Source: a virus (lineage: Duplodnaviria; Heunggongvirae; Uroviricota; Caudoviricetes). From it: a stretch of 4,535 nt of DNA. The notes below the pieces were generated by a model. The model had not been told where the DNA came from and made no database searches. It saw only the letters and a program-made list of their open reading frames with translations. The DNA lies in IMG/VR virus record IMGVR_UViG_2667527584_000004; one strand, given 5' to 3'. This document shows positions 794 to 4,325 of the stretch, piece by piece (the first letter of the stretch is position 1; the number at the start of each line of letters is the position of its first letter). Made by a program: the position numbers and the translations under genes.

Positions 794-1306
794 ATGGGAG
801 CGATTTATGTTAAACGTTTGATTCTGTCGGTAGCACTGATAATACCGATAGCATCCAATGCTTCTGATGCTTTGAACCAGCCGAGCAGTAGTCTAAATGA
901 TGGTGTTGAGACTTTTTTTATTTCCTGCTTTGATATGCCTCAGGAAACAACTACTGATATGGACGCTTGTCAGAGAGTTCAGTTAGCTCAGGTTAGTTGG
1001 GTTAAGAATAAGTATTCGGTGGCCGCCCTGAATCGTTTGAAACAAGACAACAAGGATGATCCACAGCGTCTGCAGGAATTAACTGCTTCTTTTAACGCGG
1101 AAAGTGAAGCTTGGACAGAATTAATTGAGAAAGCGTCAAAGTCCGTCCAGGTTGATTATGCAGGAGGAACTATAGCTGGCACTGCAGTTGCATCACGTCA
1201 AATTGGTCTTCTGGAATTACAATCCCACGATATCTGGGAGCACTGGCTACGATTCGAGGACTCAACTCCTCCTCTTTTGCCAGAACCAAAGTTCAAATCT
1301 GAGTAA
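794..1306 (+). CDS. Secreted/periplasmic protein with Sec signal peptide; tentatively DUF1311 (LprI lysozyme-inhibitor-like) family; prophage moron
   Basis: 170-aa ORF. ATG at 794 with GAGGGG 9-14 nt upstream. N-terminus MGAIYVKRLILSVALIIPIASNA then SDA has the n-region, hydrophobic core and AXA cleavage site of a signal peptide. Double stop TAATAA, then a terminator. GC content clearly lower than flanks. Family assignment rests on a remembered motif pattern (Cys pair near N-terminus, AW...YAGG segment). Confidence 0.8.
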   Translation: MGAIYVKRLILSVALIIPIASNASDALNQPSSSLNDGVETFFISCFDMPQETTTDMDACQRVQLAQVSWVKNKYSVAALNRLKQDNKDDPQRLQELTASFNAESEAWTELIEKASKSVQVDYAGGTIAGTAVASRQIGLLELQSHDIWEHWLRFEDSTPPLLPEPKFKSE

Positions 1307-1441: not shown

Positions 1442-1469
1442 ATTATGTATCTCAAAGGTACATTGTCAA
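1442..1469 (-). promoter_or_regulatory. PL-like leftward promoter
   Basis: Minus strand: -35 TTGACA (1469-1464), 16-nt spacer, -10 CATAAT (1447-1442). An operator overlaps the spacer. Confidence 0.6.
1446..1462. promoter_or_regulatory. OL-type operator TGTACCTTTGAGATACA (one mismatch from TGTAC-N7-GTACA)
   Basis: Same 17-bp dyad as the two perfect sites between the repressor and cro-like genes. An extra TGTACC half-site lies at 1441-1436 on the minus strand. Confidence 0.5.
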
Positions 1470-1508: not shown

Positions 1509-2183
1509 TTAGGCTTTGATTTTGTATCTTCTTGGTTTTCCTGAGAAAATCACAGTACCAATTATAGAGCAATTACCGTTGATCTTAATGTAAGGCTCAG
1601 GCCAGTTTGGGTTTAACGCTTTGAGATAACGCTGTGTCCCATCTTCTATCAACCTTTTGAAGGTGGTTTCACCTGTATCGTGCATCAATGCAATAACGTC
1701 GTCACCGTGGCAGGCAGGTACTTCAGGATCGACAAAAATCATGTCTCCCGGGCGGTACTCATCAATCATTGAATCACCTATCACCCGCAAGATATAAGTC
1801 ATTTCCCCACAGGGTACAGGGCAGGGATACGTTTCTGCTGTGCTCAAATCAACCTCAGAATATCCAACTTCTTTCCATGCTCCGGCCTGTACCCATGATA
1901 TGACAGGGACTAATGTGATTTGTTTATTAGTGATTGAAACATCAGGTTTTTTTGTGATGTTCGTTGTCTGGTGTTCTTGATCGAGCCATCCGACAGGCAG
2001 GTCGAAACATTTTTCGATGTGTCGTGCCATGCTGTCACCGATATTTTTAGTAGCACCATCTCCCATAAACCTGCTGGTCTGGGTTGGCTCGCGATCAATC
2101 ATAGTGGCAAAGGAAGAATTCCCGCCAACACCATCTCTCAGTTTTCTGGCGTTAGACCGCCGGATGTCATGGATTGTTTTCAT
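1509..2183 (-). CDS. cI: CI-type prophage repressor (N-terminal HTH, C-terminal S24 LexA-like autopeptidase domain)
   Basis: 224 aa. C-terminal half carries the S24 signatures: VQAGAW (Ala-Gly cleavage site), ILRVIGDSM (catalytic Ser), TFKRL (catalytic Lys), and a VDPEV...LKALNPNWP...INGNCSIIG pattern resembling P22 C2 / lambda CI. Divergent from the cro-like gene across an operator region. Confidence 0.92.
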   Translation of the reverse strand: MKTIHDIRRSNARKLRDGVGGNSSFATMIDREPTQTSRFMGDGATKNIGDSMARHIEKCFDLPVGWLDQEHQTTNITKKPDVSITNKQITLVPVISWVQAGAWKEVGYSEVDLSTAETYPCPVPCGEMTYILRVIGDSMIDEYRPGDMIFVDPEVPACHGDDVIALMHDTGETTFKRLIEDGTQRYLKALNPNWPEPYIKINGNCSIIGTVIFSGKPRRYKIKA

Positions 2184-2273: not shown

Positions 2274-2474
2274 ATGAAAGCGTATTGGGACTCTTTAACC
2301 AAAGAACAGCAGGGCGAGTTGGCCGGAAAAGTTGGCTCAACACCTGGCTACTTACGGCTGGTTTTCAATGGCTATAAAAAAGCCAGTTTTGTGCTGGCTA
2401 AAAAACTTGAGCAATGCACGTCAGGTGCAATTACGAAATCTGACTTAAGACCGGATATCTATCCGAAAGATTAG
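2274..2474 (+). CDS. Cro-like HTH regulator (YdaS/Cro family)
   Basis: 66 aa, MKAYWDSLTKEQQGELAGKVGSTPGYLRLVFNGYKKASFVLAKKLEQCTSGAITKSDLRPDIYPKD. GGAGG 11 nt upstream. The in-frame upstream ATG at 2250 lies inside the operator/-10 and is rejected. Pattern matches short YdaS-type Cro analogues. Confidence 0.85.
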   Translation: MKAYWDSLTKEQQGELAGKVGSTPGYLRLVFNGYKKASFVLAKKLEQCTSGAITKSDLRPDIYPKD

Positions 2475-2505
2475 CAGAACACTTTCAATTTTTAACCACA
2501 GAACG

Positions 2506-3069
2506 ATGAGGCTAATCGTGGGTAAGCATCACTGGAAAATAGAAAAACAGCCTGAGTGGTACGTGAAAGCTGTCAGAAAAACGATCGCGGCGTTGCCGGG
2601 TGGTTACGCTGAAGCGGCTGACTGGCTCGATGTAACAGAAAACGCTTTATTCAACCGCCTTCGTGCAGATGGCGATCAGATTTTCCCGCTGGGATGGGCA
2701 ATGGTTTTACAGCGTGCTGGTGGCACTCACTTCATTGCTGATGCTGTGGCGCAGTCTGCAAATGGCGTCTTTGTGTCTCTTCCTGACGTCGAGGATGTGG
2801 ACAACGCCGATATCAACCAACGCCTGCTGGAGGTCATTGAACAGATCGGCAGTTATTCAAAACAGATTCGTTCAGCAATTGAAGACGGTGTAGTGGAACC
2901 GCATGAGAAGACAGCAATTAACGATGAGCTGTACCTCTCAATTTCGAAGCTGCAGGAGCATGCAGCACTGGTCTACAAAATCTTTTGCGTTTCAGAAAGT
3001 AGTGACGCCCGCGAGTGTGCAGCTCCGGGCGCCGTGGCGTGTCGTGACTGTGGAGAAACTAACGCATGA
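2506..3069 (+). CDS. YdaT/CII-like early regulator
   Basis: 187-aa ORF 31 nt after the cro-like gene. Family call is from remembered similarity to YdaT-type proteins that follow YdaS in Rac-like prophages. ATG 2506 has no clear Shine-Dalgarno; an in-frame GTG at 2518 preceded by GAGG (2508-2511) is an alternative start. C-terminus has a CRDC motif. Confidence 0.8.
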
Positions 3070-3404
3070 ACAGTTTAACAACACACTACCGTCGCTCGCA
3101 ACTGATTGCGCTTCCTGTACCGGGTGGAAAAGCGAAGGTGGAGTATTGCTATGCAGTAAATGTACCAGGTGACAGGGAAATTGTAACCCACAGCTTTGCT
3201 GAGTGGGCTGTGGGTGATTTCAACCGGCAGAAGGAGACAGTCCTTTGCGACAAGTTAACCGCTGGTTCAAAGATCACTACGGAGTGCCCGTCAGAGTCAT
3301 TCGTTGGGAACCGGAAACACAACGGGTTATCTACCTCCGCGAAGGCTATGAGCATGAATGCTTCAGTCCGCTCGAACAGTTTCGTCGTAAATTCAGGGAA
3401 ATAG
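3066..3404 (+). CDS. Hypothetical ORF (doubtful); overlaps the stop of the preceding gene (ATGA) and the whole small gene at 3245..3424
   Basis: 112-aa ORF from the track. The N-terminal half looks protein-like; the C-terminal half is Ser/Asn-rich and looks like an off-frame read of the 3245..3424 gene. Confidence 0.3.
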
Positions 3405-3424
3405 AGGTCGGTCATGAGCACTAA
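3245..3424 (+). CDS. Small phage protein, DUF4222-like (tentative), TTG start
   Basis: AGGAG (3232-3236) 8 nt upstream of TTG 3245. Translation [59 protein letters not shown] fits a remembered DUF4222 pattern. Overlaps the O-like start by 11 nt. Below the ORF-track length cut-off. Confidence 0.5.
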
Positions 3425-4325
3425 ATTAACCGGCTATGTATGGGATGGTTGCGCTGCGTCAGGCATGAAGTTATCCAGCGTGGCAATTATGGCCCGCCTG
3501 GCTGATTTCAGTAATGACGAAGGTGTGTGCTGGCCATCAATTGAAACCATTGCCCGCCAGATTGGCGCGGGGATGAGTACCGTCAGAACGGCTATCGCAC
3601 GGCTGGAAGCAGAAGGCTGGTTAACGCGTAAGGCGCGTCGCCAGGGTAACCGCAATGCGTCGAATGTTTATCAGCTTAACGTTGCGAAGCTTCAGGCAGC
3701 GGCATTTTCTCAACTGTCAGATTCTGACCCGTCAAAATTTGATGCGTCGAAATCTGGCAAAAAAGCGGGTTTTCACCCGTCAGAATCTGGCGGGGATCCG
3801 TCAGTAAAATCAAAACATGATCCGTCAGATAAAAAAACTTCTCGTCCGGACGCTTCGCAACCGGACACGCAGACGGCTGAACAGGAGTTTTTAACTCGCC
3901 ATCCTGATGCTGTTGTATTCAGCCCTAAAAAGCGCCAGTGGGGAACGCAGGATGATTTGACCTGCGCACAGTGGCTCTGGAAAAAAATCATCGCCCTGTA
4001 CGAGCAGGCTGCCGAATGTGACGGCGAGGTGGTTCGTCCCAAAGAACCGAACTGGACAGCCTGGGCAAACGAAATTCGCCTGATGTGTGTGCAGGATGGT
4101 CGTACTCACAAACAAATCTGCGAGATGTACAGCCGCGTCAGCCGCGATCCGTTCTGGTGCCGTAACGTGCTCAGCCCGTCGAAGCTGCGGGAAAAATGGG
4201 ATGAGCTTTCCCTGCGCTTATCGCCGTCCGTAAGTACGTACACCGAAAAACGCGAGGACCCGTACTTCAAAGCCAGTTACGACAACGTGGACTACAGCCA
4301 GATCCCGGCAGGATTCAGGGGGTGA
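3414..4325 (+). CDS. Replication initiator, lambda O-like (N-terminal HTH, iteron-encoded linker, C-terminal domain)
   Basis: 303 aa. GAGG (3403-3406) 7 nt upstream. N-terminal winged-helix-like segment SIETIARQIGAGMSTVRTAIARLEAEGWL. The central low-complexity DPS-rich linker is encoded by DNA direct repeats, the hallmark of ori-lambda-type origins inside O genes. Confidence 0.9.
   Translation: MSTKLTGYVWDGCAASGMKLSSVAIMARLADFSNDEGVCWPSIETIARQIGAGMSTVRTAIARLEAEGWLTRKARRQGNRNASNVYQLNVAKLQAAAFSQLSDSDPSKFDASKSGKKAGFHPSESGGDPSVKSKHDPSDKKTSRPDASQPDTQTAEQEFLTRHPDAVVFSPKKRQWGTQDDLTCAQWLWKKIIALYEQAAECDGEVVRPKEPNWTAWANEIRLMCVQDGRTHKQICEMYSRVSRDPFWCRNVLSPSKLREKWDELSLRLSPSVSTYTEKREDPYFKASYDNVDYSQIPAGFRG
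3714..3836. repeat. Iteron array, probable phage replication origin within the O-like gene
   Basis: Six copies of a CCGTCAGA-type core starting at 3714 (CTGTCAGA), 3729 (CCGTCAAA), 3744 (GCGTCGAA), 3777 (CCGTCAGA), 3798 (CCGTCAGT) and 3822 (CCGTCAGA), followed by an A-rich tract (3829-3837). Confidence 0.7.

Follow-up and report, generated by a model that had tools for sequence, protein, structure and literature searches.

In phage lambda, the regulator CII is an unstable activator that is encoded just after cro and switches on leftward repressor and antisense promoters (pRE, pI and paQ), where it binds to direct TTGC repeats flanking the -35 element. Phage 186 encodes a CII protein that is also an activator (PMC7708051), and whose site, ATGTTTG-N13-CAAACAT, overlaps the cII start codon and serves to activate the leftward promoter pE according to GenBank annotation and sequence. 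The YdaS and YdaT proteins of the Rac and CP-933P prophages (PF15943 and PF06254; structure 8BT1) are encoded at the same position beside the repressor. Here, these systems are compared with the gene pair ymfT-ymfL in a 4,535-nucleotide stretch of DNA from a virus of the Caudoviricetes (IMG/VR record IMGVR_UViG_2667527584_000004), which is referred to as the window throughout. The original prediction had seen in this pair a Cro-like gene followed by a YdaT-like one, acting either as Cro/CII-type regulators or as a toxic module. The pair consists of ordinary, already annotated regulators, one Cro-like and one CII-like, and what is added here is a settled start codon for ymfL together with a conserved architecture of two sites and two predicted promoters. 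The explanation that best covers the whole, and which sequence comparison renders moderately probable, is that ymfT and ymfL form a Cro-CII block in which YmfL would bind to two inverted repeats and activate two leftward promoters.

The ymfT-ymfL pair and its family

The window belongs to a lambdoid, e14-type prophage, of which it spans the immunity region and the early-right region. Along its entire length it shares 99.9% identity with a prophage that E. coli UTI89 and many other extraintestinal pathogenic E. coli (ExPEC) strains carry, and of 5426 complete E. coli genomes, 399 contain at least 80% of it, the pairing of the two genes being more than chance. RefSeq names the genes of the UTI89 copy ymfK (LexA-family repressor), ymfT, ymfL, a DUF4222 protein and a helix-turn-helix (HTH) replication protein. 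The order ymfK-ymfT-ymfL-ymfM is the same in the cryptic prophage e14 of E. coli K-12, whose ymfT (b1146) and ymfL (b1147) are the same genes with the same predicted sites and -10 elements, and in which YmfL is annotated as 'uncharacterized'. YmfK is 100% identical in amino acid sequence to its K-12 counterpart, YmfT differs from it by one residue and YmfM by three, and the differences in YmfL are confined to the last ~25 residues. Whereas e14 is a defective remnant, the prophage studied here is more complete, being of the UTI89 type and equipped with genes for replication and lysis.

The two open reading frames (ORFs) of the original prediction, 2274-2474 (66 amino acids) and 2506-3069 (187 amino acids from ATG), are found where they had been placed, both on the plus strand, and the suggested functional analogy to Cro and CII is right. 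The pair occupies the cro/cII slot of a lambdoid immunity region, being divergent from the S24 LexA-like repressor gene ymfK and lying upstream of an O-like replication gene. The first gene, ymfT, encodes a Cro-like HTH protein that matches phrog_35 ('transcriptional repressor', E=3e-15) and HTH_3. Its match to PF15943 (YdaS_toxin) is sub-threshold (25.1 bits, E=1.5e-5, cut-off 30), BLASTP aligns it to K-12 YdaS with E=1e-5 and 26% identity, and the Prokaryotic Genome Annotation Pipeline (PGAP) names it 'YdaS family HTH', so that Cro-like and distantly YdaS-like is a fair label. YmfT is the Cro analogue of the pair. Within its gene, TGGCTATAAAAAAGCCAGTTTTGTGCTGGCTAAAAAA at 2369-2405 gives terminator-like hairpins on both strands.

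The second gene, ymfL, encodes a member of the phage 186 CII family and is the CII analogue. The protein matches the NCBIfam model NF041471 ('YmfL family putative regulatory protein') with 169.8 bits against a cut-off of 90, over profile positions 2-143 of 143, as well as PF06892 (Phage_CP76, the family of phage 186 CII) with 51.4 bits against a gathering score of 26, over positions 5-141 of 146, and phrog_101 ('CII-like transcriptional activator') with E=1.3e-70. When 1.84 billion cluster representatives were searched exhaustively, the family proved to be small, with 194 clusters at E<=1e-3; its distant members are 150-170 amino acids long and 25-35% identical. A profile built from 71 members retrieves the 'Regulatory protein CII' chains of the PDB (6VLI/6VMH) with E=8e-4. 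A 71-sequence alignment, from which the 186 CII row was left out, was used as input for AlphaFold2 and yielded a confident model with a predicted local distance difference test score (pLDDT) of 87.2. In this model, an XRE-type HTH domain of five helices (residues 13-25, 29-37, 41-48, 58-68 and 72-80) is followed by a long antiparallel helical hairpin (96-121 and 128-156), which resembles 186 CII with its HTH and helical C-terminal domain. In a Foldseek search of the PDB with this model, the best eight matches are all phage 186 CII chains (6VLI, 6VPE and 6VMH), of which the six full-length ones align over ~145 columns with a Foldseek probability of 1.00, E=3.6e-4 to 1.4e-3 and a target TM-score of 0.49-0.52. 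The relationship is thus a remote one that is backed by two independent methods, the profile and the predicted fold. Throughout the subfamily, the recognition helix (residues 41-48, ENALFNRL) does not vary.

The family that had been proposed for this second gene does not stand. At E<=10, ymfL gives no match to PF06254, for which the K-12 YdaT control scores E=1.8e-11; a BLASTP comparison of YmfL with K-12 YdaT gives E=11, and the POU-like YdaT structures 8BT1 and 3C4R, although present in the PDB, are missing from the matches of the YmfL fold search. The YdaT operator TTGATT-N6-AATCAA (PMC9986795) has no match in the window with up to two mismatches allowed. Membership of YmfL in the YdaT family is therefore ruled out by profile, pairwise, fold and operator searches alike, and what remains of the likeness to the YdaS/YdaT pairs is the shared position beside the repressor and the distant YdaS-type HTH of YmfT. 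Neither is YmfL a relative of lambda CII: it has no Phage_CII match, and at E<=10 PF06892 is accompanied by a chance-level DUF7577 match alone.

Two possible starts had been noted for ymfL, an ATG at 2506 without a Shine-Dalgarno (SD) sequence and a GTG at 2518 preceded by GAGG. These sequence facts are correct (GAGG lies at 2508-2511, 6 nucleotides before the GTG), and the ambiguity itself is now settled in favour of GTG 2518. Among 74 related loci from different Enterobacterales species, which form the comparison set used below, the start codon lies within one codon of the equivalent of 2518 in every case (GTG in 70, ATG in 4). The upstream ATG is found in only three near-identical loci, and five (L006, L009, L010, L030 and L075) carry an in-frame stop immediately before the GTG. 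When 25 homologues are aligned, the initial methionine of the distant ones falls on V5 of the ATG-started ORF, and PGAP chooses the GTG too. YmfL, encoded by 2518-3069, is therefore 183 amino acids long.

The C-terminal tail, residues 157-183, is predicted to be disordered, being modelled at low confidence by AlphaFold2 (pLDDT 55-63), and no part of it falls within the Pfam domain (residues 21-154 of the 187-residue ORF). The Cys-containing CRDC of the tail had been read correctly in the window, yet it is not a conserved motif, as K-12 has SIASGC in its place, and the end of the K-12 tail reads VASIASGCGETNA, unlike the one here. The tail motif of the subfamily is instead DARECAAPG(A/V)VA, with a nearly invariant Cys in RECAAPG; a second such Cys, in the FC that closes the last helix, recurs in distant relatives. 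The last five residues, GETNA here and MEKSA in other loci, are encoded by GGAGAAACTAACGCATGA, which holds both the SD sequence (GGAG, 3051-3054) and the ATG (3066) of ymfM, and it is because these five codons carry the ymfM signals that the final residues of YmfL are conserved. A zinc knuckle was considered for the Cys-containing tail and rejected, since the sole PDB sequence match is a chance one to an HIV nucleocapsid peptide (E=1.3), CRDC is unconserved and the tail is predicted to be disordered. In 186 CII, which also has a tail outside the folded core, FtsH and RseP are recruited by the C-terminal part that follows residue 145, and the protein becomes more stable when this part is removed (PMC7708051). 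By this analogy, the most economical reading is that the disordered tail of YmfL probably is a degradation signal. One family member, P0215, shares only 28% identity with YmfL overall and yet has a nearly identical tail (a 19-residue stretch), so that the tail may travel as a module of its own, either by itself or as its coding DNA plus the junction to the following gene.

Two conserved inverted repeats and the predicted leftward promoters

Among the 74 loci, the genes upstream of ymfL are unrelated until ~25 nucleotides before the GTG, where the DNA alignment then shows tAACCACAG, ~9 variable bases, the SD sequence, (T/A)TAACC and GTG-GGT. In the window, this site 1 spans 2494-2523 and reads AACCACAG-N14-tCGTGGGT, with the core CCAC-N18-GTGG; its spacer contains the SD GAGG (2508-2511), and its right arm contains the GTG start and the second codon (GGT) of ymfL. 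A second copy, site 2, recurs ~690 nucleotides downstream inside the ymfM-like gene; in the window it spans 3186-3215 and reads ACCCACAG-N14-CTGTGGGT, with the same core and N18 spacing, and its codons are held at AAC/ACC-CAC-AGY and GTG-GGN. The consensus is an imperfect inverted repeat, AACCACAG-N14-C(C/T)GTGGGT, whose arms (approximately A[A/C]CCAC[A/G]G) lie 22 bp apart from centre to centre. Site 1 is present in 71 of the 74 loci and site 2 in 62, with a spacing of N18 in all except four copies of site 1 that have N19. Elsewhere in the 446 kb of these loci there are ~6 N18 cores, which is about the chance expectation, and the two cores of the window compare with 0.07 expected; the 16.5-kb UTI89 prophage stretch has no further ones. 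Two other repeats, the direct repeat AGAAAAAC (2541/2575) and CAGAAC (2475/2498), were considered as CII sites and discarded, being unconserved, and CCAC-N18-GTGG accounts for the conservation.

The motif remains unchanged next to cro-like genes that fall into 17 clusters at 40% identity and repressors that fall into 29 clusters at 70%, and the operators of the window itself are TGTAC-N7-GTACA; the two sites are thus not immunity operators. Site 1 is also kept in loci that lack the ymfM and DUF4222 genes and have other genes after ymfL, which leaves YmfL as the only protein that always accompanies it. In L012 and L077, an extra ORF (2545-3004, 145 amino acids, and 2526-2818, 89 amino acids, respectively) starts at the GTG-GGT of site 1 and parts the site from ymfL, so that site 1 stays beside the cro-like gene and ymfL gains an ATG. 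The insert looks like a moron placed a few codons into ymfL, and both loci fit the view that the GTG is kept as part of site 1. Six distant homologues (25-33% identity, different hosts) that were looked up singly have an AACCA-type motif ~25 nucleotides before their start. In three of them (L083, L086 and L087) the arms are clearly paired and change together (CCACC/GGTGG, CATAC/GTATG and CCACT/AGTGG), the right arm holding the start codon; L084 has GTGG after the ATG, and in L082 and L085 the motif is degenerate. The predicted binder of the sites is likely YmfL, because it is the constant companion of site 1, because its recognition helix is as invariant as the motif, and because 186 CII sets a precedent.

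Both sites are accompanied on the minus strand by TTAnnn-N17-TAnnnT at a fixed distance, that is, a -10-like hexamer with TTA-rich hexamers at the -35 position. At site 1, TAnnnT lies exactly 23 nucleotides past the 26-bp core in 54 of 67 unique contexts and within one nucleotide of that distance in 67 of 67; at site 2, it lies exactly 23 nucleotides away in all 60 unique contexts. When the left flanks are clustered so that identity between clusters stays below 70%, all 43 clusters of site 1 and all 17 of site 2 have it. No comparable enrichment of TAnnnT is seen at other offsets, and there is none on the plus strand, which eliminates rightward promoters at the two sites. A stop-codon artefact was likewise rejected for the -10 of site 1, since the upstream gene ends at this TA in no more than 13 of 69 loci. 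Read in the ymfM frame, the hexamer of site 2 falls on codon boundaries and persists through changes of amino acid: its first codon is AGA, ATG, AAT, AAA and others, Arg being always AGA/AGG (25 of 25) even though CGN accounts for 67% of the Arg codons in these ORFs, and its second codon is GTA in 42 of 42 Val cases, ATA in 14 of 14 Ile cases, or TTA/CTA. As the hexamer is held constant by rare codons while the amino acids change, selection acts on the nucleotides here and not on the protein.

Predicted promoter 1, an analogue of pRE/pE at 2468-2495 on the minus strand, consists of TTAAAA (2495 to 2490), a 16-nucleotide spacer and TAATCT (2473 to 2468); its transcript would start at ~2461 and run antisense through ymfT towards ymfK. 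Predicted promoter 2, at 3159-3187 on the same strand, consists of GTTACA (3187 to 3182), a 17-nucleotide spacer and TACATT (3164 to 3159), with a presumed start at ~3152 from which transcription would be antisense over the 5' end of ymfM and the whole of ymfL. Both sites and their -10 hexamers are intact in K-12 MG1655 (NC_000913.3), where the predicted starts fall near 1,203,211 and 1,203,908.

A proposed circuit and its alternatives

In the proposed circuit, loss of the repressor or infection would allow pR to transcribe ymfT, ymfL, ymfM and the downstream genes. YmfL would then accumulate and bind to both repeats through its recognition helix, as an oligomer joined by the helical hairpin, and activate the two weak leftward promoters from sites centred near -48.5. 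The transcript of promoter 1 would be antisense to ymfT and then encode the repressor ymfK, thereby serving the establishment of lysogeny (the function of pRE and pE), and that of promoter 2 would run back over ymfM and ymfL, opposing rightward transcription to the division-inhibitor, DUF4222 and replication genes and feeding back on ymfL itself. The role of promoter 2 would be comparable to that of lambda paQ or to promoter interference in 186. Activator-driven leftward promoters are the logic of lambda CII as well, with an unrelated protein. The likeness to 186 goes further: the gene follows the Cro/Apl analogue, the inverted repeat has arms about two helical turns apart, lies over the start codon of the gene itself and stands beside a leftward promoter, annotated in 186 and predicted here, and a gene for a cell-division inhibitor comes directly next (fil after cII in 186, ymfM here). 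The differences are that the arm is AACCACAG rather than ATGTTTG, that the start codon lies in the right arm and not in the left, that the site is ~12 bp further from the -10, that there is a second site with a predicted promoter, and that the phage is a lambdoid one, carrying an S24 repressor, and not P2-like.

Several observations weigh against this circuit. A direct BLASTP comparison of YmfL with 186 CII finds no significant similarity (E=14), and for this reason their homology rests on profiles and predicted fold. The predicted -10 and -35 elements are weak and are missing from the output of a generic promoter scanner. A terminator-like hairpin on the minus strand of ymfT (2399 to 2381) lies ~85 nucleotides into the promoter 1 transcript and could stop it before ymfK, in which case the product would be a short antisense RNA and not a repressor mRNA. 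The distance from the centre of the site to the first base of the -10 is ~36.5 nucleotides here and, by our own reading, ~24 in 186, and with a geometry so unlike that of 186 the mechanism of activation may differ. Because site 2 is coding sequence, its conservation is partly at the protein level. Finally, since the loci share descent, the counts exceed the number of independent observations, which the 43 and 17 flank clusters represent more fairly.

One alternative is that YmfL does bind to the two sites, yet that its main role there is to repress or block transcription, with autorepression at its own start, a rightward block at site 2 and minus-strand -10 elements that are inactive. Such a role would suit the position of site 1 over its own SD and start codon and that of site 2 between the early regulators and the replication genes, and one report describes YdaT, the Rac-type analogue, as the equivalent of a 'CII repressor' (PMC9986795); the structural relative 186 CII, on the other hand, is an activator (PMC7708051). 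The alternative is unlikely, since TAnnnT in 60 of 60 and 67 of 67 contexts, held in place by rare codons, is hard to explain without a promoter.

It is similarly improbable that the repeats are genuine DNA sites bound by something other than YmfL, that is, by a host protein such as DnaA or by another phage protein. The sites lie just upstream of replication genes, and each arm (TTAACCACA) is one or two mismatches away from the consensus of the DnaA box (TTATCCACA). The arms form a strictly inverted pair at a fixed 22-bp spacing, however, and end in a conserved G that is foreign to a DnaA box, and they change along with the CII-like protein in the distant homologues. Site 1 furthermore travels with ymfL whatever the downstream genes are, and the exception of L012 and L077, in which it stays beside the cro-like gene, suits the function of a promoter rather than a link to replication.

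The repeats might also be RNA hairpins and not DNA sites, for instance a translational operator that hides the GTG, and the complementary arms that co-vary in distant homologues, together with the start codon in one arm of site 1 and the SD in its loop, are what such an operator would have. Site 2 of the window does fold well (-19.3 kcal/mol, z=-3.7), whereas site 1 folds no better than shuffled sequences (z=-0.08) and the two sites of L022, a typical relative, give z=-0.07 and -0.96. Site 2 lies away from any translation start, and hairpins would leave the -10-like element at a fixed distance on the opposite strand unexplained, which makes this reading decidedly unlikely. A search of the Rfam type for RNA families gave no match within the ymfT-ymfL range.

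The suggestion of a YdaS/YdaT-type toxin-antitoxin or otherwise toxic module, which would draw on the sub-threshold YdaS_toxin match of ymfT and on two papers that call Rac ydaS/ydaT toxic (PMC5917430, PMC5917428), can hardly be entertained, given that ymfL lacks the match that the YdaT control produces, that PADLOC finds no defence or toxin-antitoxin match in what is a complete immunity and replication region, that induction of K-12 ymfL causes neither filamentation nor a change in cell length (bioRxiv 10.1101/2020.11.19.390815), and that the Rac pair has been reread as equivalents of Cro and CII (PMC8630535 and PMC9986795).

Activation of two leftward promoters by YmfL thus stays the preferred reading of the repeats. 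The searchable literature, in which journal coverage is partial, describes no YmfL binding site and no architecture of two sites and two promoters. The chances are about even that the circuit is an undescribed one for lambdoid phages of the e14/SfV type, with a GTG kept throughout the family as an operator arm, two antisense promoters dependent on an activator, a role in lysogeny and a site geometry (centre near -48.5) unlike that of either lambda CII or 186 CII.

Neighbouring genes and significance

The gene ymfM (3066-3404, plus strand, 112 amino acids) overlaps the stop of ymfL with its start (ATGA) and has its SD sequence in the last ymfL codons. K-12 YmfM is annotated as a cell division inhibitor, and the division inhibitor of e14 maps to ymfM, the ORF after ymfL (bioRxiv 10.1101/2020.11.19.390815). 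Among relatives, YmfM is conserved in its first ~60 amino acids only. The 3' half of ymfM is overlapped in another frame by a DUF4222 ORF (3245-3424, plus strand, 59 amino acids; PF13973, E=8.6e-19) that has a TTG start and the SD GGAG at 3233-3236 and also extends past 3414, where the O-like replication gene starts. RefSeq annotates this ORF in UTI89, and K-12 carries an identical one that is unannotated. In the overlap region of 36 unique relatives, 52% of the differences fall at third codon positions of DUF4222, amino acid identity is 61% in the DUF4222 frame versus 35% in the ymfM frame, and the ymfM frame is interrupted by stops in 8 of the 36. The coding signature of the overlap is that of the DUF4222 frame, and selection on YmfM appears to be limited to its first ~60 amino acids. 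The published pBAD-ymfM clone would include 53 of the 59 DUF4222 codons, and no frame controls were reported with it. With two overlapping frames, either product of the ymfM/DUF4222 region might be SfiC, the SOS-inducible division inhibitor.

The O-like replication gene (3414-4325, plus strand) encodes 303 amino acids here. At 3707-3833 it contains iteron-like repeats, namely four units of ~15 bp with CCGTCA(A/G)AATCTG and two GATCCGTCAG units. The window has two 15-bp units (30 bp) fewer than the UTI89 gene, giving proteins of 303 and 313 amino acids, a difference that looks like copy-number variation of origin iterons.

To the left of ymfT, ymfK (1509-2183, minus strand, 224 amino acids) encodes a repressor of the CI type whose S24 autopeptidase domain is LexA-like (PF00717, E=1.5e-26; phrog_4, transcriptional repressor). 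Between the two genes lies the right operator region (2201-2267), with the TGTAC-N7-GTACA palindromes at 2201-2217 and 2251-2267. A pattern search finds three matches to this palindrome in the window versus 0.10 expected, the third, with one mismatch, being located at a pL-like promoter (1446-1462). A candidate pR (TTGAAG at 2224-2229, a 16-nucleotide spacer and TAATAT at 2246-2251) is placed between and over the palindromes; its putative hexamers, read by eye, score 8 of 12, under the threshold of the scanner. The strongest sigma-70-like promoter of the region (1442-1469, minus strand, TTGACA-16-CATAAT, 11 of 12) points leftward just past the end of ymfK and is overlapped by the operator-like TGTATCTCAAAGGTACA (1446-1462) and a 19-nucleotide direct repeat (1426-1464). 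This element is probably the analogue of pL/OL. Between the leftward early region and ymfK, a 170-amino-acid ORF (794-1306, plus strand) with an N-terminus like that of a signal peptide has a weak match to LprI, a lysozyme inhibitor (PF07007, E=0.006; phrog_7681), and a terminator-like hairpin downstream of it (1332-1353); the ORF is possibly a lysogenic-conversion gene. Further left, 461-683 on the minus strand matches the full Rfam model of STnc100, a small RNA of gammaproteobacteria, with 45.4 bits and E=9e-8 (gathering score 47), a stretch that is annotated in UTI89 as a frameshifted pseudogene of a hypothetical protein.

For the ymfL family, these results correct a tempting mislabel, as ymfL is not a ydaT gene and very probably not a toxin gene, and settle the start codon of a gene that is present in about half of the complete E. 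coli genomes. For the uncharacterised ymfL of K-12, the two 30-bp sites and the predicted transcription starts at ~2461 and ~3152 (window positions) amount to a predicted function that can be tested cheaply. Should the circuit be confirmed, it would show how a 186-type CII protein is wired into lambdoid immunity regions, and the GTG found throughout the family would be explained as one sequence with two jobs, that of an operator arm and that of a start codon.

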